Part shown: piece by piece, positions 12,157 to 53,623 of the stretch
Layout: the number at the start of each line of letters is the position of its first letter
Numbering within the stretch: position 1 is the stretch's first letter
Translations under genes and position numbers: made by a program
The notes under the pieces: model-generated
What the model was told of the DNA's origin: nothing
Seen by the model: the letters and a program-made list of their open reading frames with translations, nothing else
The model's database searches: none
Assembly (NCBI RefSeq): GCF_028368995.1
Contig: NZ_JAQNDL010000002.1
Span: forward strand, 609,724-673,723
Length of the DNA stretch: 64,000 nt
DNA from: Nannocystis bainbridge
GTDB lineage: Bacteria > Myxococcota_A > Polyangia > Nannocystales > Nannocystaceae
Direction: 5' to 3'

Positions 12157-12254
12157 CGGAATCATCTGGCTAAAAGGACAGCTAGCGATCGGGCTCACGC
12201 GGCGAGCGGACGCGCGGGCCAATTGATCGCGGGTCCAAAGTCACCGACCCTTCG

Positions 12255-13991
12255 ATGTCGTCCGACGCACCGCTCATTCACCAGCTCCTGGAGCAGCTCG
12301 AGCTCGAGGGGATCACGCACGTCTTCGGGGTGCCGGGCGGGCCGCTCAGCGCGCTGTTCGAGGCGCTCAAGGCCCGCGGACGCATGCGCTTCGTGCTGGC
12401 GCGGCACGAGGCGGGCGCGGCGTTCATGGCCAACGCGTACGCGCGGGTCCGCGGCGAGCCGGCGGTCTGCTGCGTGACCTCGGGGCCGGGGGCGACCAAT
12501 GCGCTGACGGGGGTGGCCTCGGCGCACGCGGACTCGCTGCCGGTCCTCTACCTGACGGGGCAAGTGGCGACGGGGATGTTCGGGCTGGGGGCGATCCAGG
12601 AGAGCACGTGGCACGGGGTCGACGTGGTCGAGATCCTGCGGCCGGTGACGAAGCTTTCGACGATGGTGGTGACGGCGCAGATGGGGATGCGGCTGCTGCG
12701 GCACGCGCTGCGCACGGCGACGACGGGCCGCCCTGGGCCGGTCCACCTCAACATCCCGGCCGACCTGGCGCGGGTGAAGGTGCCGTACGAGGTGCGCGAG
12801 CCGGGCAGCTACCGCCCGCCGTGCGTGTCGGTGGCGCGGGCCGAGGACGTCGAGCACGCGGCGCGGCTGCTGGCAGGCGCGCGCAGGCCGACGCTGTTCG
12901 CCGGCCACGGGGTCGCGCTGGCGAGAGCCGAGCCGGCGCTGCGGCGGCTGGCAGAGCGGCTGCAGGCGCCGGTGGTGACGTCGCCGAAGGGCAAGTCGGT
13001 GTTCCCCGAGGATCACCCGCTGTCGCTCGGCGTGTTCGGGATGGGCGGCCACACGCGAGCGGACCGCTGGCTCGAGGACGACGACGTGATCCTGGTGATC
13101 GGCTCGAGCCTCGGCGAGTTCGCGTCGAGCGCGTGGAGTCAGCGGCTGCGCGCGCCGGTGGCGTTCGTGCAGGTCGACGTCGATCCGCTGCAGATCGGCA
13201 AGAACTACCCGGTGACGCTCGGCCTGGTCGGTGACGCGCGCGCGACCGTGGAGGCGATCACGGCGGCGCTGCCGGGGGGTCCGTCGCGGCCGGCGTCGGA
13301 GGCGGTGGCGAAGCTGAAGCGCGAGGTGCCGCGGTGGGAGCAGCCGGAGCAGCGCAGCGCGGAGGCGTCGCCGCTCTCGCCGCCGCGGGTGATCACCGAG
13401 CTGCGCGCGGCGCTGCCCGATGACGGGCTGCTGTTCGTCGACACCGGCAATTCGAGCCTGTGGGCCGGCCATCACTTCGAGGCGCGGCGGCCGGGCACGT
13501 ACTTCATCGACATGGGATTGGCGGCGATGGGCAGCGCGGTGGCAGGGGCGATCGGCGGGGCGCTGGCGGCCCCGGGGCAGCGGGTGGTGGTGCTGACCGG
13601 CGACGCCGCGTTCGCGATGCACGGCTTCGAGGTCCACACCGCGGTCGAGCTCGGGCTGCCGGTGACGTGGGTGGTGCTCGACAACGCGGGTCACGGGATG
13701 ATCCAGCAGGGCGAGCAGCTGGCGTTCGGCGGCGACGCGGGCTTCTACGGGTTCCGTCACCGGATCGACGCGGCGATGGTGGCGCGTGGGTTCGGGGCGG
13801 TCGGGGTCGAGGTCGAGGACGTGAAATCACTGCGGTCGGCGCTGCGCGAGGCGCTGGCGGGATCGCGGCCGACGGTGATCAACGTGCGCGTCGACCCGAC
13901 GGTGATGGCGCCGACGCTGGCCCGCCGCGCCAGCGCGGTGGCAGAGTTCTTCGGCACGGCGCGCGCGCTCGGCCCGGCAGGTGCGGCGTGA
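12255..13991 (+). CDS. Thiamine-diphosphate-dependent enzyme, acetolactate synthase large-subunit family (possible acyloin synthase)
   Basis: N-terminal Pyr domain (GITHVFGVPGGPLSALFEAL ... AFMANAYARVRGEPAVCCVTSGPGATN), central domain, C-terminal ThDP-binding motif (VVVLTGDAAFAMHGFEVHTAVELGLPVTWVVLDNAGHGMI). Confidence 0.8.
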   Translation: MSSDAPLIHQLLEQLELEGITHVFGVPGGPLSALFEALKARGRMRFVLARHEAGAAFMANAYARVRGEPAVCCVTSGPGATNALTGVASAHADSLPVLYLTGQVATGMFGLGAIQESTWHGVDVVEILRPVTKLSTMVVTAQMGMRLLRHALRTATTGRPGPVHLNIPADLARVKVPYEVREPGSYRPPCVSVARAEDVEHAARLLAGARRPTLFAGHGVALARAEPALRRLAERLQAPVVTSPKGKSVFPEDHPLSLGVFGMGGHTRADRWLEDDDVILVIGSSLGEFASSAWSQRLRAPVAFVQVDVDPLQIGKNYPVTLGLVGDARATVEAITAALPGGPSRPASEAVAKLKREVPRWEQPEQRSAEASPLSPPRVITELRAALPDDGLLFVDTGNSSLWAGHHFEARRPGTYFIDMGLAAMGSAVAGAIGGALAAPGQRVVVLTGDAAFAMHGFEVHTAVELGLPVTWVVLDNAGHGMIQQGEQLAFGGDAGFYGFRHRIDAAMVARGFGAVGVEVEDVKSLRSALREALAGSRPTVINVRVDPTVMAPTLARRASAVAEFFGTARALGPAGAA

Positions 13992-14944
13992 TCGGCGAGG
14001 TCGGGATCCTCGGCTTCGGCCACGCGCTGCCGGACTGCATCCGTCACAACGACGATCCGCTGTTCGCCGCGCTGCCGCCGGCGGGGCCGTTCACCGGGTT
14101 CCGCGAGCGCCGGGTGCTGGCCGCGGGCGAGCGCGTCGAGACGCTCGGGGTGCGCGCGGCCCGGGCCGCGCTGGCGGACGCGGGCGTGGCGGCGGGGGCG
14201 ATCGATCGCCTGTACGGCGCGGTGTCGCCGTCGGAGCACCTGCTGCCGAGCGGGCTGTTCGCGCTGCACGCCGAGCTCGGGCTGCGCAGCGACGCGACGG
14301 TGGTGCCGATCGGCGGCGAGTTCGTCAACTTCGTGGTCGCGCTGACGAGCGCGTGTGAGGCGGTGGCGGCCGGCCGCTGCGAGCGGGCGCTGGTGGTGGT
14401 GGCGGCCGGCTGGAGCCGCGTGGTCGACTACGGCGACGCGGGCGCGTTCGGGGTCGGCGACGGGGCCGGGGCGGTGGTGGTCGGCCGCGGCGGATCGCTG
14501 CGCTTCGTCGACGAGATCGGCGAGACGCACGGGGCGCTGCACGCGGCGATGACGGTGCAATTGCGGGCGCCGCGGCACGCCGAGCCGGGCGCAGGGCCGC
14601 GGCCGACGTTCGTGTTCGAGGCGGCGGCCCGCCGCGTGTACGCCGAGCTTTCGACGGCCGCGCCGGCGCGGCTGTGGGGCGCCTTGCTGGCGCGTCACGG
14701 GCTCGTGCCGGCCGAGGTCGCGCTCGTGACCCATCAGCCGAATCAGCCGGCGCTGGCGGCCTGGCAGCAGCAGCTCGGGCCGGGCGAGCTGCCGAGCGTG
14801 GTCGAGACGCTCGGCAACTGCACGCTGGCGACGTCGGCGATCGTGCTGTCGCTGCACGCCCGCACGCTGCGCTGCCGCCACGTGGTGGTGCTGGGGCTGG
14901 GGATCGGCCAGAACTTCTCGGCGCTGCTGTTGCGGCGAGAGTGA
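13988..14944 (+). CDS. 3-oxoacyl-ACP synthase III (KAS III / FabH-like) family protein; GTG start overlapping upstream stop
   Basis: FabH-like fold signatures (active-site Cys in ALTSACEAVAAG, His/Asn region ..VTHQPNQP.., ..TLGNCTLATSAIVL..). The first ~175 aa of ORF 13460..14944 are Arg/Gly low-complexity (not coding). Confidence 0.75.
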   Translation: MIGEVGILGFGHALPDCIRHNDDPLFAALPPAGPFTGFRERRVLAAGERVETLGVRAARAALADAGVAAGAIDRLYGAVSPSEHLLPSGLFALHAELGLRSDATVVPIGGEFVNFVVALTSACEAVAAGRCERALVVVAAGWSRVVDYGDAGAFGVGDGAGAVVVGRGGSLRFVDEIGETHGALHAAMTVQLRAPRHAEPGAGPRPTFVFEAAARRVYAELSTAAPARLWGALLARHGLVPAEVALVTHQPNQPALAAWQQQLGPGELPSVVETLGNCTLATSAIVLSLHARTLRCRHVVVLGLGIGQNFSALLLRRE

Positions 14945-14984: not shown

Positions 14985-15115
14985 GGGGAGTCCGGAGCTC
15001 GCCGTAAGAGCGGGGCATGTCCTCGTGGGCATGTCCTCGCGGGCATGCCTTGAAGGACATGTCTTCATAGACATGCCGAAACGGGCATGTCCCCGGGGAC
15101 ATGCTCAGCGGCGCA
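14985..15115. repeat. REP-like repeat cluster (GCATGTCC-TCGY-GGGCATG iterated about 6x with a ~14-bp period)
   Basis: ggggcatgtcctcgtgggcatgtcctcgcgggcatgccttgaaggacatgtcttcatagacatgccgaaacgggcatgtccccggggacatgctc. Confidence 0.7.
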
Positions 15116-16440
15116 GCAGGGCCCGGCGCAGGACGCTCGGGTGGAACAGGGCGTGGCTCGGGCGCATCAGGTGCAGCACCTCGACCAGGCGCAGGTGGAT
15201 CTCGGGCGAGCGGGTCGCCGCGGCGAAGATCCGGTCGACGAGGCGGTGCATGAGCTTGAGGCCGGGCGAGACCTTGCCGGTGGTGCCGGGCCAGCGCAGG
15301 TCGTCGCTGCTGGCGGTCATGAAGGCGGCCAGGTTGCCGGCGGCGAGGCGCTTCTGGAAGCGCAGGCCGAGCGGCTGCTCCGGGCGCGCGCGCAGGGCGG
15401 CGTCGAGCACGGTGGCGGCGACGGCGGCGACGCTCATGCCCTGGCCGTAGACGGGGTTGAGGGCGCAGGCGGCGTCGCCGAGCACGACCAGGCCGGCGGG
15501 CCAGCGGCGCAGCTTCTCGTAGTGACGCAGGCGGTTCTCGGTCTTGCGGTAGCCGTGGATCGCCGAGCACGGGACCGCGCCGACGAGGGCGTCGCGCAGG
15601 GCCGGGGTCTCGAGCGCGCCGGCGAACTCGAGGAAGCCGGCCTCGTCGACGGGCGGGAAGGTGCCGCCGTAGCCGACGAGGGTGACGATGTGGCGGCCGC
15701 CCTCGACCGGATAGACGACGCCGCCGCGCGGGTTCTTGCCCGGCTTGCCCATGGCGTAGAGGACCTTCCAGTCGGGCCGCGCGGTCAGCTCGTAGAGCCG
15801 GGTGGCGTAGCCGAGCTGGGCGTCGATGACGGTCTCGGGCGGCTCGGGGTAGCCGAGCGCGGCCAGCCAGGTCGGGGCCTTCGAGGCGCGGCCGCTGGCG
15901 TCGACGACGAGGTCGGCCCGCAGGTCGTCGTCGGCGAGCTCGGGGGCGCCGCTGCGGCGGTGGACCTGGACGCCGACGATGCGCTCGCCCTGCGCCTGCA
16001 GGCCGGTGACCTCGACGCCCGAATGGACGCGCACGCGGGCGTCGGCGATCAGGGCCTCGCGCGCGAGGTACTCGAGCAAACCGCGGGTGCAGGCGCGCGA
16101 GCGCAGCTGCGAGGGCACGCGCGGGGCCTCGCCGAACGGGGTGTGCCAGGCGACGTCGTCGAGCCAGTCGATCTCGTGGGCGCCGGCGGCGGCGAGGGCC
16201 GGGCCGAGGTCGGGGAACAGCTCGCTCATGATCCGCCAGCCGCGGGTCAGGAGGACGTGCACGTGGTGGCTCTGCGGGGCGCCGGCGCGCGGGTCGGGCC
16301 CGGCCGGCAAGAGGTCGCGGTCGAGGATGGTGACGCGCTCGAAGTGACGCGTGAGCACGCGGGCGGCGAGGAGGCCGGCGATGCCGCCGCCGACCACGAT
16401 CGCGCGGCGCCGGGCCGGCGCGGAGCCTGAGGTGGACATG
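15105..16440 (-). CDS. FAD-dependent oxidoreductase / flavin monooxygenase
   Basis: N-terminal Rossmann GxGxxG (AIVVGGGIAGLLAARVL). About 445 aa with coherent sequence. The upstream part of six-frame ORF 15105..18206 is artefact. ATG at complement 16440. Confidence 0.75.
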
Positions 16441-16559
16441 GCGCAGTGATACGACAGGGGGGCGACGGCCGGAAGCGGGCGGGACCCGCGTCGATGGTCG
16501 GGGCGTGTGCGCGAGGCCCAGCTCCGCGCGGCGGTGAGAAGGACCGCGCGCGGACGGGC

Positions 16560-16730
16560 GCGATCGCCCGCGGGGCGTGCTGGTCGAAGGGACAGGTGGC
16601 GCGGGGCTCGAAGGCGCGGGTGATGCCGGGTTCGAGCCGCGTCGATGTCATCTGGCCGAAGAGACAGGTCCGCGGCGGGCGAGCGATGGATGTCCGAAGG
16701 GACAGGTCGTCGATAAGCCGCGGCCTCGCG
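16560..16730. repeat. REP-like repeat cluster, GGGACAGGTS variant
   Basis: gaagggacaggtggcg ... gaagagacaggtccgcg ... gaagggacaggtcgtcg. Confidence 0.6.
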
Positions 16731-17027
16731 CTGTGATCGCAATCGCAAGCGGCGCGGGCGTCGGCATTCACGGGTCTGCACCTCGGAGGTTCCGCACGGG
16801 CCTTCGCCTTGACCGCCCACCGGACCGCGTGTATCCCCAAATCGATGCTCCGGCGCGCCACCACCGCGACTACCACGACCACCCTTTCGGGTGGGGTCGG
16901 TCGCGTGCGCGTGCGCTGAGAGCCTTCTCGTCACGTCCTGCGAAGCCCCGCCCGAACCGGCGGGGCTTTGGCGCGCCTGGTGGCGTCGCTCCGTCCGGTC
17001 GGCCCTTTCGACCCGGAGAACGCCGTC

Positions 17028-18248
17028 ATGAGCCACGAACACAGCCCCCATTCCGTCCTCGACGCCCACGATCACCGCGCCCTCGGTCCGCGCCTCGGCC
17101 TGTTTCATCTGCAGGAAGAGGCGCCGGCGATGGTGTTCTGGCACCCCCGCGGGCTGGTCCTCGCCCGCGCGCTCGAAGACGCGGCCCGCCGCCGCGCCCG
17201 CGCCGATGGCTATCAAGAGGTGCGCACGCCGCAATTGCTGCGACAGCCGATCTGGGAGAAGAGCGGCCACTGGCAGCATTTCCGCCAGGGAATGTTCGCA
17301 GTCGCGGACGAGGGCTGCGGGGCGGCGCTGAAGCCGGTGAGCTGCCCGGGCCACATCCAGATCGCGCAGCGCCAGGCGCTCTCGTACCGCGACCTGCCGC
17401 TTCGCCTGTGCGAGTTCGGGCTGTGCCACCGCGACGAGCCGAGCGGGACGCTGCACGGGCTGTTCCGGCTGCGGCAGTTCACGCAGGACGACGGGCACGT
17501 GTTCTGCGCGGAGGACCAGATCGCGGCCGAGATCGTGCGCTTCTGCCAGGGCGCCCGCCAGTTCTATGCGGGCTTCGGATTCGACGAATTCGCGGTGGGG
17601 CTCTCGACGCGCCCGCCGGAGCGGGTCGGCGACGATGCGCTGTGGGACCGCGCAGAGGCGCAGCTGGCGGCGGCAGCCCGCGAGGCGGGGCTGGAGTTCA
17701 ATGTGCAGCCAGGCGAGGGCGCGTTCTACGGGCCGAAGCTCGAGTTCTCGCTGCGCGACCGCCTGGGCCGATCGTGGCAATGCGGGACGATCCAGCTCGA
17801 CTTCAACCTGCCAGAGCGGTTCGGGCTGCACTACATCGACGAGGCAGGCCAGCGCCGCCGGCCGGCGATGCTGCACCGGGCGATCTACGGCAGCCTCGAG
17901 CGGTTCCTGGCGATCGTGCTCGAGCAACACGCAGGGTCGCTGCCAGCCTGGCTGGCGCCGGTGCAGGTGGTGGTGGCGCCGGTCGGTCCGGAGCAACAGG
18001 CGGCGGCGGCGGCGGCGGTGGCGGAGATGGCGGCGGCGGGGATCCGCGCGGAGCTGGACGACCGCCGCGAGACGCTGGCCCGCCGGGTGGCAGAAGCCCA
18101 CGCGCACGGGGTGCCGATGATCGCGGTGATCGGGGCGCGCGAGGCGAGCAGCGAATCGCTGACGCTGAGGGTCGGGGCGGCGCAGCAGGTGCTGCCGCGC
18201 ATGCAAGCGGTGGCGCAGATCGCGAGGGACTGCGCGCCGCCGGTGTGA
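17028..18248 (+). CDS. Threonyl-tRNA synthetase paralog: catalytic core plus anticodon-binding domain only (lacks N-terminal TGS/editing domains)
   Basis: Class II aaRS/ThrRS motifs: QLLRQPIWEKSGHWQHFRQGMF, zinc-site CPGHIQI, motif 2 ..RLCEFGLCHRDEPSGTLHGLFRLRQFTQDDGHVF.., motif 3 ..GAFYGPKLEF... C-terminal anticodon-binding-like alpha/beta domain. Start ATG 17028 with GGAGAA RBS. Confidence 0.75.
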   Translation: MSHEHSPHSVLDAHDHRALGPRLGLFHLQEEAPAMVFWHPRGLVLARALEDAARRRARADGYQEVRTPQLLRQPIWEKSGHWQHFRQGMFAVADEGCGAALKPVSCPGHIQIAQRQALSYRDLPLRLCEFGLCHRDEPSGTLHGLFRLRQFTQDDGHVFCAEDQIAAEIVRFCQGARQFYAGFGFDEFAVGLSTRPPERVGDDALWDRAEAQLAAAAREAGLEFNVQPGEGAFYGPKLEFSLRDRLGRSWQCGTIQLDFNLPERFGLHYIDEAGQRRRPAMLHRAIYGSLERFLAIVLEQHAGSLPAWLAPVQVVVAPVGPEQQAAAAAAVAEMAAAGIRAELDDRRETLARRVAEAHAHGVPMIAVIGAREASSESLTLRVGAAQQVLPRMQAVAQIARDCAPPV

Positions 18249-18385: not shown

Positions 18386-19726
18386 TTGAAGGTGCGAGAC
18401 GGGCGGCGGTGCCTGGCCGCCAGGATGCCGACGTGGTACGGAAGAGCGGTGCAGATCCGCGACATCGAGCTCACGAACTTCCGCGGCTTCGAGACGCTCA
18501 AGTGTGAGCTCAACCCCGAGTGCACACTGTTCGTGGGGATCAACGGATCTGGCAAGACCAGTGTACTTGATGCGATCGCGGCGCTGCTATCGATGTGGAT
18601 GCGTGCTGTGGCCGGTCGATTGGATGGGGGGAGGCTCGAGCCCGACGACCGGCGGCTAGTCCGGCGGATCATCAAGGGGGTCCCGAGCCTTGAGGTTGCG
18701 GGGCCCGTGGTCGTCCATGGAACCATCTCTGGAAGAGAGGGTGAATCGCACCTTGAACGCGTGTCGTTGGACGGCACAGATTTTGTAAACAGTTCCCTCC
18801 TGTCGGAAGGGTATCGCACTGTCGAATCGGTCAGTGCAGGAGCGCAGGAAGAACTGCCGCTCTTCGCTTACTACTGCACCGGTAGACTGTGGCAAACGAG
18901 CGATGTGCAGGGAAACCTGAGGTTGCAAAGCGTGTTCGATGGCTACCGTGATTGTCTGCGCGCGGCTGTTAACCATCAGCTTCTTCAGAGCTGGATGTCG
19001 TGGCGGGAATCCGTCCGCCTGCAGGAGATCGGTCTCGCCGTGGAAAGCGGCCAGGAAATCAGGTCGGTACGAGAACCGCTGCTCGAGGTAGTTGCAAACG
19101 CAGTTACCGATTGTGTGGAAGGGGCAAAGCGGTTCTACTATTCCGTAAACCACGAGGAGCTTCGGGTCGACTTCAAGGACGGGCGAACGCTGCCCTTCCG
19201 CATGTTGTCGGACGGGTACCGCAACTTGCTGGCGCTCGTCGGCGACATCGCCTGGCGCGCCGCGCGGCTCAATCCTCATCACGGGGTAGATGCGGCCAAG
19301 GAGACCGCAGGCGTGGTGCTGATCGACGAGCTCGATCTTCACCTGCACCCGAGCTGGCAGCGGAGCGTGCTGCCGAACTTGCGGCGGGTCTTCCCGAAGA
19401 TCCAGTTCATCGCCACGACCCACTCGCCGCAAGTGCTGTCCACGGCCGAGCCGGCGTGGATCCGCGTGCTCCATCCGGACGGCAGCGTGGGCACCGTCGA
19501 GCATACGCACGGACGTGACTCCAACAGCCTGCTCGAGGACGTGTTTGGCGTCCCCGAGCGGCCCGTCGAGACGCGCGACGACATCCGGCGGCTGTTCGAC
19601 CTCATCGATCGCGGCGCGTTCGACGAGGCCGAAGCGTTGCGGGAGAAGTTGCAGGAGGACCTCGGTCCGGACGACCCTGACATCGTGCGGGCTCGAACCG
19701 CGATCGATCTCGAGAGGAATCTATGA
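18386..19726 (+). CDS. AAA/ABC-type ATPase, PtuA-like (Septu-type defence ATPase); true start possibly ATG 18425
   Basis: RecF/SMC-like Walker A (FVGINGSGKTSVLDAI), Walker B/D-loop (VVLIDELDLHLHP), H-loop (IATTHSP). GC content about 55-62%, well below flanks. Confidence 0.65.
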   Translation: MKVRDGRRCLAARMPTWYGRAVQIRDIELTNFRGFETLKCELNPECTLFVGINGSGKTSVLDAIAALLSMWMRAVAGRLDGGRLEPDDRRLVRRIIKGVPSLEVAGPVVVHGTISGREGESHLERVSLDGTDFVNSSLLSEGYRTVESVSAGAQEELPLFAYYCTGRLWQTSDVQGNLRLQSVFDGYRDCLRAAVNHQLLQSWMSWRESVRLQEIGLAVESGQEIRSVREPLLEVVANAVTDCVEGAKRFYYSVNHEELRVDFKDGRTLPFRMLSDGYRNLLALVGDIAWRAARLNPHHGVDAAKETAGVVLIDELDLHLHPSWQRSVLPNLRRVFPKIQFIATTHSPQVLSTAEPAWIRVLHPDGSVGTVEHTHGRDSNSLLEDVFGVPERPVETRDDIRRLFDLIDRGAFDEAEALREKLQEDLGPDDPDIVRARTAIDLERNL

Positions 19727-20349
19727 TCTCGGCCCCAAAGGGGAGCGCGCCGTCCTGTCTCACCACGCTGGCCGCCACGCCGGGGGCCGACTGGGACAGC
19801 GTGTACGGCGACCAGAAGCAATCGATGCGGGATGCGCTCGTGCGTGACCAGGGGTCGCTCTGCGCGTACTGTCAGCGGCGAGTGAAGGCGACCGAGGCCG
19901 ACATGCGCATCGATCACTGGCACCCGCGCGAGCGCGGCGGAGGTGTGTTCCAGTGGAACAACCTCGTCGGCTCGTGCGCCGATCGTGTGACCTGCGACGC
20001 GGCGAAGCAGGAGACCCGGCTGTTCCTTCATCCTGCGCGCGGGCTGGGGCCCGATCCGCGGCAGTTCCTGCGCTACACCGGCTCGGGCGAGGTGGTCGCC
20101 GACGACGAGCGGGCGCGTGCCGACACGCGTACGCTCGGTCTCAACGACGATCGCCTGGTCCGGGCCCGGCGGGCGGTGCTGGACGCCCTCCGCGGATGGA
20201 TCGCGCGGCGCGAGCGGTCAACGGCAGAGCTCCAGCGACAGATCGTGCTCCTGGAGTCGCCTGCAGGCGAGGCCCCGGAGTATGCGGCGACTCGTGCCTA
20301 CTATTTCCGCAAATGGTCGAGGGCGCGGGGAGCAGCCGTGGAGCGGTGA
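19723..20349 (+). CDS. HNH endonuclease, PtuB-like partner of the ATPase
   Basis: CAYCQRR ... DHWHPRERGGG ... WNNLVGSC = Cys-rich HNH/His-Me finger. ATGA overlap with upstream ATPase. Confidence 0.6.
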   Translation: MISAPKGSAPSCLTTLAATPGADWDSVYGDQKQSMRDALVRDQGSLCAYCQRRVKATEADMRIDHWHPRERGGGVFQWNNLVGSCADRVTCDAAKQETRLFLHPARGLGPDPRQFLRYTGSGEVVADDERARADTRTLGLNDDRLVRARRAVLDALRGWIARRERSTAELQRQIVLLESPAGEAPEYAATRAYYFRKWSRARGAAVER

Positions 20350-30651: not shown

Positions 30652-30752
30652 GCGCGCCTGCGCGATCGTGAGGCGCGGCCGCGGGGCTGCCGTCGCGCTG
30701 CATCGGCTCGTATTCTCGGGGCCCGCGACTTCGCCGTCGCGACAGGAGCCCC

Positions 30753-49478: not shown

Positions 49479-50132
49479 TCACGAGCCGGTCGCGGCCGGG
49501 TCGCCGTCGTCGCGGTCGAGGGCGCGGCGGATGCTGGCGGCCCAGCCCTCGAGGTCGGTGAGGGTGGCCTGGAGCTCGGCCGGCGAGCGGGCCAGCTCGG
49601 CGAGGCGGGCCCGCAGCTGGTCCTTGCCGAGCCGCAGGCGCCCGCGCACGGTGCCCTCGGGCACGCTGAGCAGCTCGCTGATCTCGCGCCCCGAGAGGCC
49701 CTCGAAGATGTTGAGCTCGAGCACGATTTGCTGGTCGAGCGGGATCTCTCGCAGCGCCAGCACCAGCAATTGGGCCTCGCGCCGGCGCATGACGATCGAG
49801 CTCATCGACGACGGCGACAGGTCCTTGACGCACAGCGCCCCGAAGTCGAGCGCCTCGCCCTGGCGCTTGTGCTTGGTGCGGATGTAGAGCCGGAGGACGT
49901 TGAGGGCGATGGCGAAGACGAACCGCTTGAAGCTGGTCTCGCCGCGGAAGCCGTCCTTCGCCTTGGTACACTCGAGGAAGGTCTGACTGACGAGGTCGGC
50001 GGCGTCGTGCTCGCTCGAGACCTTGTTGCGGAAGAAGCGGGCGATCGCGCCGAAGTGTCGCTTCACCAGCCGCTCCCCCGCGCCGCGGTCGCCGGCCCGC
50101 CAGGCCGAGAGCAGTTCCCAGTCGGGGTCCAT
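49479..50132 (-). CDS. ECF-type RNA polymerase sigma factor (sigma-70 regions 2 and 4)
   Basis: Region 2 (..DLVSQTFLECTKAKDGFRGETSFKRFVFAIALNVLRLYIR..) and region 4 HTH (..LSGREISELLSVPEGTVRGRL..). Confidence 0.75.
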   Translation of the reverse strand: MDPDWELLSAWRAGDRGAGERLVKRHFGAIARFFRNKVSSEHDAADLVSQTFLECTKAKDGFRGETSFKRFVFAIALNVLRLYIRTKHKRQGEALDFGALCVKDLSPSSMSSIVMRRREAQLLVLALREIPLDQQIVLELNIFEGLSGREISELLSVPEGTVRGRLRLGKDQLRARLAELARSPAELQATLTDLEGWAASIRRALDRDDGDPAATGS

Positions 50133-50206
50133 GGCGCCTCGATCTTACCTCGACCTGCGCCGCCCGCGGGGCCGCGTCGCCTGTTATCTTCTCCGCCCCT
50201 CCGACG

Positions 50207-53200
50207 ATGTCGACGCCGCCCGACACGCCGCCCGACACGAAGGCCGCCCGCGGTGCAGGTGCGGGCACGTGGGCCGACGTCGACGTCCATCGTCTCCATG
50301 CGCGCGTGATGGGCCGGCTGTTCGGCGAGCCGGCCGCGCCCACCATGATCGGCAGGTTCCATGTCGAGCGCCGGCTGGGGTCGGGGGCCATGGGCGTCGT
50401 CTATGCGGCCGTCGACGCCCAGCTCAATCGCCGGGTCGCCATCAAGCTGCTGCACCCGCACCTGCAGGGCGACGAGCAAGGCCGCGCTCGACTGCTGCGC
50501 GAGGCCCGGGCGATGGCCCGCCTCGAGCACGATCACGTGGTGCGGATCTACGAGGTCGGCGCGTGGGGCGACCAGATCTACATCGCCATGGAGCTGATCG
50601 AGGGGGTGACCCTCGACGCGTGGCTGCGCGAGCGCCCGCGGGCCTGGCAGGCGGTGCTGACGGTGTACCTGCAAGCGGGGCGGGCGCTGGCGGCGGCCCA
50701 CCACGCGGGGCTGCTGCACCGCGACTTCAAGCCCGAGAACGTGCTCGTCGACCACCGCGACCGCGCCCGCGTCCTCGACTTCGGGCTGACGTGCGCGCTC
50801 GATGCCGGCGAGGCGCTCGACGACGAGCTGATGCCGCTGACCCGCACCGGCAGCATCCTCGGCACGCCGGCGTACATGGCCCCCGAGCAGCAGCGCACCG
50901 GCAACGCGGAGCCGCGCTCCGACCAATTCAGCTTCTGCGTGGCGCTGTTCGAAGGTTTGTTCGGTCTGCGGCCGTTCGGCTCGGTTCCGCGCTTCGGTCA
51001 GGTCGAGATCGCGCCCATTCCGCGGGAAAGTCGCGTCCCTTTGCGCATCCGCCGCGCGATCTTTCGCGGCCTGTCCGAAAAGCCAGATGCGCGCTGGCCG
51101 GGCATGGACGACCTGCTGGCGGCCTTGCAGGCGCCGCGCCGGTTCGTCGGCGGGCCCGAGGACGGGCGGGCGCGGCCGTGGCTGCTGGCGGGCGGAGTGA
51201 CGCTCGCGGCCGCGGGGCTGGTGGCGCTCGGCGTGTCGCTGGCGCAGCCGGAGACGGGCGATGCGGTGGCGGAGGGGCCAGAGCCGGGGCCGCTCGCGAG
51301 CGCGCCCGACGAGGCGCAGGCCGACGCGCTGGCGACCGAGCGCGCGGCCGCCGAACGCCAGGCCCACGCGCTGCGGGTCCGCGACGCCGCGCTGTCGCTG
51401 CTGCCCCGCGATCCGACGACGGCGGCGCTGCTGCTGCGCGAGCTCGACGATCCCGGAGCGCTGGCCCAGCGGGTGCTGGCGGAGCCGATCAGCGCGGCGA
51501 TCCTGCGCGGCCACGACGGGCCGGTGGTGGCGGTGCGCTGGATCGAGGCTGTCCCGGGGGACAGGGGCGCGGTGCCGGGGGCGGCGAGCGAGGCTGTCCC
51601 GAGGGACAGGTCGCATGGCGCGCCGGCAGGGTCCGCGAGCGCGGCGGTGCTGGCGAGCGGTTCTGTCCGTGCGGGCAGCGGCGGGGCTGTCCTCCGGGAC
51701 AGGTCGGGCGGCGAGGCGGCGCTCCTTGGGAGCGGGTCGATGCCGCACGACATGGCTGTCCTCGGGGACAGGTCACGAGTGAGCGGTACGGCTGGCCTTT
51801 CGGACAGTTCACGCGCGCGTGAGCCGATCGAAAAGACTGTCCTTCGGGACATGTCGCGAGCGAGCGGAGCGGCGGTGCTGGCGAGCGGCGTCGGCTCACC
51901 TGTCCCGGGGGACAGTTTGGCGTCGCCTGTCCCGCAGGACAGCTCGAGAACACCGCCGGCGGAGCTGCGCGGCGCGGTCGAGACCGTCGACGCCTCCGGG
52001 CACGTGCGTCGGTTCGCGATCGCCGGCGGGCCGCCGACCCCCGGCGCGGGCAGCTTCGGCGCCGACCCGCGCCGCGGCCCTGCGGGCGAGGAGCTGCGGG
52101 TCGACGCTCGCGGCGGCGTGTCGCTGGTCGCCGGCGAGCGCGTGACGGCCCTGCGCGGCGTCGTCGGCCCGCTCGCGGCGGTCGCCTGGAGCCCCGACGG
52201 CCAGGAAATCGCCGCGGCCGGCCCGCGCGGCGAAGTGTGGCGGATCGCCGGGGGGCGCCCGATCGCCGTCGGCGAGCGCGGCGCGGCCGTCGGCGCGCTG
52301 GCGTGGGACCGCGGCGGGCGGCACCTCGCGATCGGCCGCGACGACGGCGGGGTCGAGGTGTGGCGTATCGACGGCGCGGCGCGGCGGATAGCGGCGGTGG
52401 TCGGCGACGGCGGCGTCACCGGCCTGGCTCTCGGGACAGGTTGGTTCGCCAGCGGCAGCGACGACGGCAGCGCGCGGGTGTGGCGGATCGGCGGGGTCGG
52501 GCGGCCCTTCGTGCTGCGTGGTCACACCGGGCCGGTTCGGGCGCTGGCGTTCGCGCCCGGCGGTGTCCGCCTGATCACCGGCAGCGACGACGGCAGCGCG
52601 CGGGTGTGGCGGCTCAGCCCGGCGGCGGTGCGCGAGCACGACCTCGGCGCGGTCGTGCACGCGCTCGCCTGGAGCCCCGACGGCACCGCGCTGGCGGCCG
52701 CCGGGGCGCGCAGCGTGTGGCTGCTGCCGACCGACGGCGGGCCGGTGCGCCGGCGCGACCACGCCGGCACCGCGCTGGCGCTGGCCTGGCGCGGCGACGG
52801 TCAGGAGCTGGCGGTCGCCGACGACGGCGGCGCGATCACGTGGATCCCCCGCGGCGAGGGCGAGCCGCGGCGGGCCAGCGTCGACCGCCGCCCGCTACCC
52901 GCGCTGGCCTGGGATCCTCGGTCCTCGCGCCTGGCCGCCGGCGGCAGCGACGGCGCGTTCTTCATCTGGCCTTCAGGACATGACTTCAAGGACATGGCCG
53001 ATCCGACCCGCGCGCCGCAGGGCCGCGGGGCCATCGCCGCGCTGGCCTGGTCGCCGGTCGACGATCGACTGGCGGCCGTCACCGCGTCCGGCTACGTGCT
53101 CGTGCGCACCGAGCAGACCGTGTTCATCGAGCTCGGCCAGCCGCTGCGCGGGCTGGCGTGGAGCCCCGCCGGCGACGCCCTGGCGATCGTCGGCGACAAT

Positions 53201-53623
53201 CGGGCGCTGGTGCGCATCGCCGCGGCCACTGGCGTGCGTACCGAGCTGGGGCGGGCCGCGGCGGCGCTGACGAGCGTCGCCTGGGACCCGCGCGATCGCT
53301 GGATCGTCGCCGGCGCGGCCGACGGCGGGCTGCTCCACTGGTCGCTGCAGAGCGAGGGCGGGCCCGAGCTGCTCGTGGGCCACGGCGGCGGCATTCATGC
53401 CCTGGCGTTCGACACCGCCGGTGACCGCTTCGCCTCGGCGGGCGGCGACGGCCGCGTCGTCGTCTGGCCGCGCCCGGGCGAGGGCCTGCGCGCGCGCATC
53501 GCCGACGCCACGCGCGCCTGCCTGCAGCCTGCGGATCGCCGGCGTCATCTCGGTGAATCGCAGGACATCGCCGACGCAGGAGCCGCGGCTTGCGAGCGAT
53601 CATTTGGTAATGTGGATTACTAA
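50207..53623 (+). CDS. Serine/threonine protein kinase with disordered repeat linker and C-terminal WD40 beta-propeller
   Basis: Hanks kinase subdomains (GSGAMGVVY, AIK, HRDFKPEN, DFG, APE), then a linker encoded by REP-like repeats (51545-51950), then WD40 repeats (GHDGPVVAVRW, GHTGPVRALAF ... GSDDGSARVWR). Confidence 0.8.
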   Translation: MSTPPDTPPDTKAARGAGAGTWADVDVHRLHARVMGRLFGEPAAPTMIGRFHVERRLGSGAMGVVYAAVDAQLNRRVAIKLLHPHLQGDEQGRARLLREARAMARLEHDHVVRIYEVGAWGDQIYIAMELIEGVTLDAWLRERPRAWQAVLTVYLQAGRALAAAHHAGLLHRDFKPENVLVDHRDRARVLDFGLTCALDAGEALDDELMPLTRTGSILGTPAYMAPEQQRTGNAEPRSDQFSFCVALFEGLFGLRPFGSVPRFGQVEIAPIPRESRVPLRIRRAIFRGLSEKPDARWPGMDDLLAALQAPRRFVGGPEDGRARPWLLAGGVTLAAAGLVALGVSLAQPETGDAVAEGPEPGPLASAPDEAQADALATERAAAERQAHALRVRDAALSLLPRDPTTAALLLRELDDPGALAQRVLAEPISAAILRGHDGPVVAVRWIEAVPGDRGAVPGAASEAVPRDRSHGAPAGSASAAVLASGSVRAGSGGAVLRDRSGGEAALLGSGSMPHDMAVLGDRSRVSGTAGLSDSSRAREPIEKTVLRDMSRASGAAVLASGVGSPVPGDSLASPVPQDSSRTPPAELRGAVETVDASGHVRRFAIAGGPPTPGAGSFGADPRRGPAGEELRVDARGGVSLVAGERVTALRGVVGPLAAVAWSPDGQEIAAAGPRGEVWRIAGGRPIAVGERGAAVGALAWDRGGRHLAIGRDDGGVEVWRIDGAARRIAAVVGDGGVTGLALGTGWFASGSDDGSARVWRIGGVGRPFVLRGHTGPVRALAFAPGGVRLITGSDDGSARVWRLSPAAVREHDLGAVVHALAWSPDGTALAAAGARSVWLLPTDGGPVRRRDHAGTALALAWRGDGQELAVADDGGAITWIPRGEGEPRRASVDRRPLPALAWDPRSSRLAAGGSDGAFFIWPSGHDFKDMADPTRAPQGRGAIAALAWSPVDDRLAAVTASGYVLVRTEQTVFIELGQPLRGLAWSPAGDALAIVGDNRALVRIAAATGVRTELGRAAAALTSVAWDPRDRWIVAGAADGGLLHWSLQSEGGPELLVGHGGGIHALAFDTAGDRFASAGGDGRVVVWPRPGEGLRARIADATRACLQPADRRRHLGESQDIADAGAAACERSFGNVDY

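Follow-up and report, generated by a model that had tools for sequence, protein, structure and literature searches.

The DNA analysed here is a 64,000 nt stretch of the Nannocystis bainbridge genome (contig NZ_JAQNDL010000002.1, positions 609,724 to 673,723, read on the forward strand), called the window below and numbered from its first letter; its GC content is about 73%. At 17028–18248 on the + strand it carries a gene for a short form of threonyl-tRNA synthetase (ThrRS), 406 aa long, with a catalytic core and an anticodon-binding domain and with no TGS or editing domains. The open reading frame (ORF) starts with ATG, has a Shine–Dalgarno (SD) sequence (GGAG, 17015–17018) nine nt upstream of the start codon and a GC content at third codon positions (GC3) of 0.89, and is the sole frame in the region with coding-type GC3. 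A 597 nt intergenic region (16431–17027) separates it from a divergent FAD oxidoreductase gene and holds a threonine-rich leader ORF, a putative promoter, a series of predicted RNA hairpins and an array of direct repeats.

Pfam profiles matched the short ThrRS at tRNA-synt_2b (residues 97–301, 4e-45) and HGTP_anticodon (residues 313–384, 2e-14) and at no others, the TGS and tRNA_SAD domains included. The NCBIfam model TIGR00418 (thrS) gave 452.5 bits (cutoff 383.65) over profile positions 170–548 of 565, and residues 14–383 align without gaps to residues 242–611 of E. coli ThrRS, the window protein beginning at the equivalent of E. coli residue ~242. The partial coverage of TIGR00418 and the start of the alignment indicate that the N-terminal region, with its TGS (N1) and editing (N2, tRNA_SAD) domains, is absent, and a tblastn search with E. 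coli residues 1–241 found no match in the window or in any related locus compared. The zinc ligands C334, H385 and H511 (E. coli numbering) correspond to C106, H157 and H283 of the window protein (motif VSCPGHIQI). The closest solved structure matched with E = 3e-126, and an exact-sequence look-up of the 406 aa protein returned no matching record. A first-pass annotation, made from the sequence of the window, had described a class II ThrRS core that retains the zinc site and the anticodon-binding domain and has lost about 240 residues of the N-terminal TGS/editing region; the profiles and the gapless alignment bear out the first part of that description, and the alignment start and the empty tblastn search the second.

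Residue conservation was counted over 119 members of the short ThrRS family, in E. coli numbering. The zinc ligands, R363, E365, R375, Q381, D383, Y462, K465, Q479, T482, Q484, S517 and R609 are conserved in all 119 proteins, R520 in 118 and E600 in 117. Conservation thus extends to the arginines of motifs 2 and 3, to the residues that bind Thr and ATP, and to E600 and R609, which contact the anticodon. On the strength of these conserved residues the enzyme looks catalytically competent and would be expected to charge tRNAThr, and the retention of E600 and R609 argues for tRNA charging rather than carrier-protein loading. One position sets the family apart. Position 332, two residues ahead of the zinc-binding Cys and Met in E. 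coli, is Val in 119/119 members (V104 in the window protein, codon at ~17337–17339); Met is found there in 88/88 full-length representatives and in 26 of the 27 short ones outside the family. A second substitution, Y313F, is also near-fixed, and the two changes are read from the alignment as a family-specific remodelling of the active-site pocket.

The N-terminus of the short family, ML(D/A)EHDHR, coincides with the junction of the laboratory E. coli ΔN construct, and its members have a GGAG SD sequence. E. coli ΔN-ThrRS is without editing activity. The Anabaena T2ΔN construct, from which N1 and N2 have been removed, likewise does not edit (PMC4787780), so the short ThrRS is expected to release Ser-tRNAThr unless this is edited in trans. 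By its domain content the protein is a natural equivalent of laboratory ΔN-ThrRS, lacking the domain that edits Ser-tRNAThr, and it would be without editing in vivo.

The leader ORF lies at 16845–16919 on the + strand and consists of 24 codons encoding the peptide MLRRATTATTTTTLSGGVGRVRVR, with a Thr run at 16860–16883 in which seven of eight codons specify Thr. It is the sole Thr-run ORF of this type in the window. In an alignment with a 91%-identical relative (L001), conservation is higher in the ~230 nt that adjoin the ThrRS ATG than in the remaining spacer, and the leader peptide is kept, its Thr positions being encoded by swapped, synonymous Thr codons. The corresponding leaders of Myxococcus xanthus and Sorangium read VSFVITTTTTGTTTRFGGRGTVRVTW and VSVFTATTTTTTRTGGTGLVCVR, respectively, and equivalents are found in Stigmatella and others. 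Of 80 related loci, 78 have a Thr-run leader ORF ahead of the gene, compared with 66 of 3624 control windows (1.8%) taken from the same loci, and the leaders of the family contain 5–10 Thr codons each.

The apparent exceptions are two metagenome-assembled genomes (MAGs) of Polyangiaceae. In L086 the leader is found further upstream, behind a tandem-repeat insertion, and the L083 contig begins within the leader; with L086 counted, 79 of the 80 loci carry a Thr-run leader. In both loci (L086, 5560–6000; L083, 1–362) an insertion of about 330 nt that contains tandem GCAGTTACCTTGAGCT repeats lies between leader and ThrRS gene and separates the Thr sensor from the hairpin at the ribosome-binding site (RBS). 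The choice of Thr codons in the leaders is also uneven: over 76 distinct loci, ACC and ACT account for 67% of them, against 38% in the ThrRS genes that follow, in which ACG prevails. This bias could mean that one tRNAThr isoacceptor is sensed, or ACC could simply be required for pairing with region 2 of the leader RNA (see below).

A putative promoter for the leader is located at 16809–16837 (+ strand), with a −35 element TTGACC (16809–16814), a 17 nt spacer and a −10 element TATCCC (16832–16837). In 60 of 79 distinct loci the motif TTG[AC][CA] lies 35–41 nt ahead of the leader start codon (exactly 36 nt in 38 of them), and the −10 element has an A-rich position at −12, with an A in 44 of the 79. 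From a promoter so placed, transcription is predicted to begin at the leader ATG or immediately beside it, and the leader mRNA would then be leaderless. There is precedent for this in Streptomyces lividans, where the leader peptides upstream of leuS, trpS, alaS and thrS are experimentally leaderless (PMC8079986).

The leader region of the window (16845–17030) has a minimum free energy (MFE) fold of −103.1 kcal/mol (z = −4.9 relative to shuffles), and six segments that could pair in alternative ways are recognised on its + strand. Predicted hairpin 1:2 (16865–16905) joins region 1, the last Thr codons (16865–16884), to region 2, GGGUGGGGUCGGUCGC (16889–16905), which is inside the leader ORF and spans its Gly-Gly codons; in the MFE fold the Thr codons pair with GGGUGGGGUCGG. 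A GC-rich, terminator-like hairpin, 3:4 (16942–16969), has the arms GAAGCCCCGCC (16942–16952) and GGCGGGGCUUU (16959–16969). The alternative to 3:4 is an antiterminator, 2:3, in which region 3, CCCCGCCC (16946–16953), pairs with positions 16889–16896 of region 2. Further downstream, hairpin 5:6 (16978–17028) pairs an anti-SD sequence, CUCCG (16989–16993), with CGGAG (17014–17018), which contains the SD sequence GGAG of the ThrRS gene. In the alternative hairpin 4:5 (16956–16999, dG −26.5), region 5 (16988–16999) is paired with region 4 (16956–16966).

Consensus folding by RNAalifold used 44 leaders, and the pairing and covariation of individual helices were scored on a sequence-only alignment, in which some rows are misaligned, with slid positions as controls. 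The RNAalifold consensus is the 2:3 helix, with 42–44 of the 44 sequences paired at each position. No columns of the leader vary less than those of region 2 (GGCGGG-type, encoding the conserved Gly-Gly) and region 3 (CCCGCC-type), and in a set of 40 leaders all share the GG.GG core of region 2. The resemblance of region 1 to region 3, and of region 2 to region 4, is the classical logic of an attenuator. The 3:4 helix is 79% paired (slid controls, 11–50%) and the 4:5 helix 73% (38–63%), with weak covariation. The 5:6 helix is 68% paired (34–51%) and includes a UA/AU swap; its covariation is modest (0.221 versus 0.177; 2 of 500 shuffles scored at least as high).

A ribosome stalled in the Thr run was mimicked by masking the 5′ part of the leader. 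This shifts the predicted structure of the window leader to 2:3 plus 4:5, and with the Thr-run region masked, opening the RBS costs 7.9 kcal/mol instead of 16.0. Over 79 leaders the cost falls from 13.5 to 9.4 kcal/mol, a mean drop of 4.1 kcal/mol, and the drop is at least 2 kcal/mol in 63 of them. With regions 2–4 dinucleotide-shuffled, the drop is only 0.65 kcal/mol (Mann–Whitney p = 9e-16).

The distribution of the short ThrRS was surveyed among the best 120 protein matches and among the 80 best loci in species-representative genomes. The window protein is 92–93% identical to its orthologs in Nannocystis exedens, N. pusilla, N. punicea and Nannocystis sp. RBIL2. The best 120 matches are all 369–426 aa long, and every organism name attached to them is myxobacterial, including Sorangium, Myxococcus, Corallococcus, Stigmatella, Pyxidicoccus and Melittangium. 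The 80 best loci come from Nannocystaceae, Polyangiaceae/Sorangium, Kofleriaceae, Myxococcaceae and Archangiaceae, and a few from MAGs labelled otherwise. Clustering at 50% collapses the short family into one or two representatives, and every full-length ThrRS representative is less than 50% identical to it. By these matches, the window gene is identified as the Nannocystis ortholog of a short ThrRS of about 400 aa that is conserved across Myxococcota. One high-GC representative, P0157, was considered as a myxobacterial full-length ThrRS and rejected, as it is from Acidobacteriota.

Other proteins of similar size were seen outside the myxobacterial family. Among the 150 best cluster representatives, 27 are ThrRS of ~400 aa (e.g., P0126, P0142, P0146, P0164, P0177 and P0198); many of these start near the DHR motif, and a few resemble truncated gene calls. 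ThrRS paralogs without editing domains thus seem to extend beyond Myxococcota. A divergent relative, P0159 (309 aa), has KPVNCPAH instead of KPVSCPGH and has apparently lost the motif 2 arginine (FGVSHEADPGG), and may be a degenerate, non-catalytic offshoot of the short family.

The genome of M. xanthus DK1622 carries two ThrRS genes. MXAN_3591 is a full-length thrS (1929 nt; TGS, tRNA_SAD, core and anticodon-binding domain) directly upstream of rpmI, rplT and pheS, in an rpmI-rplT-pheST neighbourhood (PMC9548883 supplement). MXAN_2352 is a 1203 nt gene for a threonine--tRNA ligase at 2732618–2733820 (PMC6791715 supplement), and is identified as the short-family locus since its position relative to msrB (MXAN_2350) matches. 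During development, MXAN_2352 gives values of 30, 51, 50, 50, 213, 149 and 194 reads per kilobase per million (RPKM) at 0, 6, 12, 24, 48, 72 and 96 h, respectively, and it belongs to developmental group 8, with a late, 8.9-fold change in starvation-induced development (PMC6791715). The presence of both copies in M. xanthus implies that, in Myxococcus at least, the short family is an additional ThrRS with conditional expression, and by analogy a full-length thrS is expected in the Nannocystis genome in addition to the short form. The first-pass annotation had favoured an extra, non-housekeeping ThrRS with a resistance or biosynthetic purpose; the first half of this proposal is very likely correct, given the two copies of M. 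xanthus, and the second half finds no support in the evidence described below.

We consider it likely that the locus encodes an auxiliary, editing-less ThrRS that is present alongside a canonical full-length thrS and is induced when ribosomes stall on the leader's Thr codons. Transcription would begin at the leader start codon, and a ribosome would then translate the 24-codon ORF with its seven Thr codons. When Thr-tRNAThr is plentiful, the ribosome would traverse region 2, 3:4 would form, and 5:6 would lock the SD sequence of the ThrRS gene, leaving it off. When Thr-tRNAThr is scarce, the ribosome would stall on the Thr run and leave region 2 free to pair with region 3. Region 4, released by this pairing, would then be taken up by the anti-SD segment 5. 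ThrRS synthesis would be switched on by readthrough of transcription, by an exposed RBS, or by both. The stalling step, and the choice of termination or translation as the dominant output, are proposed from the leader sequences and their predicted folds.

Several observations weigh against this reading. The helices rest mainly on conservation, the covariation being modest for 5:6 and absent for 3:4; in the latter case the columns hardly vary and the alignment has some misplaced rows, which accounts for the lack of signal. The 3:4 hairpin of the window is followed by UUU and then GG, a weak U-tract, and in 42 of 57 parsed cases there are 0–2 U in the next 9 nt after 3:4, so the U-tract is missing from most relatives and is not conserved. 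Scans with E. coli consensus models call no promoter and no terminator; terminators in Myxococcota may follow other rules. Given the weak U-tract and the empty consensus scans, the readout may be translational (release of the SD sequence), transcriptional by other rules of high-GC bacteria, or both. At equilibrium the SD sequence is mostly paired in both the free and the stalled states, so that the probability of its being unpaired does not separate them, and the opening energy alone differs. Rfam searches at gathering and permissive thresholds returned nothing meaningful in the window, and the enterobacterial Thr_leader model (RF00506) scored 15.5 bits on the M. xanthus leader, compared with a gathering score of 55. 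Lastly, MXAN_2352 expression peaks at 48 h and not straight after starvation, so other regulators may contribute; its late induction fits starvation and does not in itself prove Thr-specific control.

Leader-peptide attenuation is a known class of mechanism, with aminoacyl-tRNA synthetase precedent in actinobacteria. The myxobacterial leader shares with the E. coli thrL (RF00506) and pheST (pheM) leaders a short ORF with a run of codons for the regulated amino acid, and segments 1–4 that can form either 1:2 plus 3:4 or 2:3; in the case of pheST, the regulated gene also encodes an aminoacyl-tRNA synthetase. It differs from these in having no significant Rfam match, in being probably leaderless, in its weak or absent U-tract, and in regulating a truncated paralog. 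It also has two extra segments (5:6) that sequester the SD sequence, for which reason its output may be translational. The S. lividans leaders (PMC8079986) are similar in their high-GC host, in having an ORF at the transcription start and hairpins without clear U-tracts, and in counting thrS among their targets. However, the S. lividans thrL has two Thr codons and precedes a normal thrS, whereas the myxobacterial leaders have 5–10 and precede an editing-less second copy, phylum-wide. The searched literature contained no description of the myxobacterial short ThrRS or of its leader.

In function, the nearest analogues are two second ThrRS copies of other bacteria. In Bacillus subtilis, thrZ encodes a backup ThrRS that is silent in normal growth and is induced by uncharged tRNAThr, but it is full-length and is controlled by T-box riboswitches, whereas the myxobacterial gene has a leader peptide. 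Anabaena T2 (PMC4787780) is a duplicated, stress-induced and editing-defective ThrRS, and there the constitutive paralog edits Ser-tRNAThr in trans. T2 retains a degenerate editing domain and is Zur-induced by zinc limitation, while the myxobacterial enzyme is without the domain and appears to respond to Thr decoding. The same two-domain architecture is found in the crenarchaeal ThrRS-cat, in yeast mitochondrial MST1 (PDB 3ugq) and in E. coli ΔN 242-642 (PDB 1evk). These are the sole ThrRS of their compartment, paired with a separate editing protein, or artificial; the short ThrRS, unlike them, is a regulated paralog in bacteria that also keep the full-length enzyme.

A bolder extension of the auxiliary-synthetase reading, tentative and on balance rather unlikely, is that of a myxobacterial fidelity switch. 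Low Thr-tRNAThr, as in starvation, in sporulation or under a ThrRS inhibitor coming from prey or competitors, would be relayed through the six-segment leader to a proofreading-less M332V ThrRS. The outcome would be either programmed Ser-for-Thr mistranslation or, by way of the altered pocket, editing-independent accuracy or inhibitor tolerance.

Less probable again is a mainly non-canonical job for the short ThrRS, such as synthesis of Ap4A-type alarmones in development or service as a heterodimer subunit with the full-length ThrRS, charging being secondary. The late-developmental expression in M. xanthus would suit such a job, and the work of Kimura et al. 2018 is said to be a study of Ap4A-forming enzymes. 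The MXAN_2352 entry carries that reference (PMC6791715 supplement), and ThrRS paralogs are able to heterodimerise (PMC4787780). However, all of the residues for Thr activation, zinc binding and anticodon recognition are conserved, and the leader appears to sense Thr decoding specifically, which fits best with charging.

The genes beside the short ThrRS bear on a third alternative. A thiamine diphosphate (ThDP)-dependent, acetolactate-synthase-like gene is found at 12186–13991 (+ strand), a ketoacyl synthase III (KAS III)-like gene directly 3′ of it at ~14000–14944 (+ strand), and the FAD oxidoreductase gene at 15105–16430 on the − strand, divergent from the ThrRS gene. Both the ThDP and the KAS III-like gene score below the NCBIfam equivalog cutoffs. 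The neighbours are thus those listed in the first-pass annotation (ThDP enzyme, KAS III and flavin monooxygenase). The gene order conserved in Nannocystis is a hydrolase, a hydrolase similar to platelet-activating factor acetylhydrolase (PAF-AH), a variable stretch, the FAD oxidoreductase (− strand), ThrRS, a second variable stretch, an O-methyltransferase and two M16 peptidases. The ThDP and KAS III genes have no counterpart beside ThrRS in any other Nannocystis locus compared, and so form a strain-specific cassette that replaces a different segment of ~1.5 kb. Outside the genus no neighbours are common with the window: the FAD gene adjoins ThrRS within Nannocystis only, and the contexts in an uncultured relative, M. 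xanthus, Sorangium and Stigmatella have zero genes in common with it.

Immediately downstream of the ThrRS gene, between it and the O-methyltransferase gene, the window has an inserted Septu anti-phage pair on the + strand, consisting of PtuA (18386–19726, PADLOC 2e-117) and PtuB/HNH (19723–20349, 4e-37). This stretch (18386–20349) has a lower GC content (0.657), and the same insertion is present in N. pusilla (L012) and absent from the remaining Nannocystis loci.

That the short ThrRS is a self-resistance determinant, or an amino-acid-activating enzyme, of the adjacent ThDP/KAS III/flavin-monooxygenase locus is very unlikely. A second ThrRS-type gene does adjoin small-molecule enzymes here, the family carries fixed or near-fixed active-site changes (M332V and Y313F), and a charging-sensitive leader would also induce the short ThrRS upon inhibition of the housekeeping ThrRS. 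However, the gene and its leader are conserved phylum-wide in the unrelated contexts described above, the ThDP and KAS III genes are peculiar to this strain, and the FAD gene, which is transcribed divergently, adjoins ThrRS in Nannocystis only. A Pfam scan of ORFs over roughly 5.5–49 kb of the window showed no polyketide synthase (PKS), nonribosomal peptide synthetase (NRPS) or carrier-protein genes. Hallmarks of biosynthetic aminoacyl-tRNA synthetase paralogs are likewise missing: the anticodon-binding domain and its contacts (E600 and R609) are retained, and no carrier protein is encoded in the scanned ORFs.

Like ObaO (obafluorin) and BorO (borrelidin), the short ThrRS is an extra ThrRS copy in a soil bacterium. 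ObaO, however, is a full-length enzyme of 637 aa whose gene belongs to the biosynthetic cluster, whereas the short family has a variable context and no cluster. ObaO carries both G463S and L489M; its resistance is due to G463S, and L489M by itself confers none (PMC11252418). All 119 members of the short family keep G463 and so lack G463S, and at residue 489 the window protein has Leu (L in 104 members, M in 15). These two marker positions speak against the resistance role that the first-pass annotation had tied to the adjacent locus. By any feature testable here, the sequence of the short ThrRS is not that of an ObaO/BorO-type resistance gene.

Least probable of all is that the short ThrRS is the only ThrRS of the organism, a housekeeping enzyme under ordinary homeostatic attenuation like E. 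coli pheST: a leader-peptide attenuator is equally compatible with a single synthetase and the NCBI family name is simply threonine--tRNA ligase, but M. xanthus has a canonical thrS in addition to the short form, the short form is low during growth, and the Anabaena work argues that a misacylating ThrRS is selected against as a housekeeping enzyme (PMC4787780).

Upstream of the leader promoter, the intergenic region contains three direct repeats of CGAAGRGACAGGTS (16585–16708, + strand) with a near-palindromic core, GACAKGTC. The repeats noted at first reading in the long 5′ region are therefore real, the motif occurring three times in the 597 nt spacer and giving 5 matches in the window compared with 0.1 expected. 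The repeat reads CGAAGRGACAKGTC, and its core, GACATGTC, is a perfect palindrome; the copies have the same orientation and an irregular spacing of 40–130 nt. Three to five copies in the same orientation are present in the same intergenic region of L001 (8141–8540), L010, L011 and L012, and one in L014. The array is confined to the Nannocystis FAD-oxidoreductase/ThrRS region, with 4 matches in 1.9 Mb of other loci. The repeats look like a set of putative regulator binding sites, and may be outside the ThrRS control region altogether.

Two other features of the window are recorded. An 858 aa ORF at 30672–33248 (+ strand) matches MVP_shoulder (6e-30), Vault_3 (1e-9) and SPFH/Band_7, and encodes a bacterial protein resembling the major vault protein (MVP). 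ARAGORN calls an 86 nt tRNA-Glu (anticodon ttc) at 52473–52558 (+ strand), inside a long, high-GC ORF (49991–53623); one of the two is probably spurious.

An extra ThrRS beside biosynthetic genes in myxobacteria is, on this evidence, a conserved core-genome paralog and not the marker of a ThrRS-targeting natural product, which removes a tempting false lead for resistance-guided genome mining. The leader would be an apparently undescribed regulatory RNA that couples the decoding of Thr codons to the expression of an editing-less synthetase across the phylum. It raises the questions of how leader peptides exert control in high-GC bacteria without U-rich terminators, whether a non-proofreading synthetase is used deliberately in starvation and development, and what effect the fixed Met332-to-Val change beside the zinc site has. 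Through MXAN_2352 these questions are testable in M. xanthus, which is amenable to genetics.

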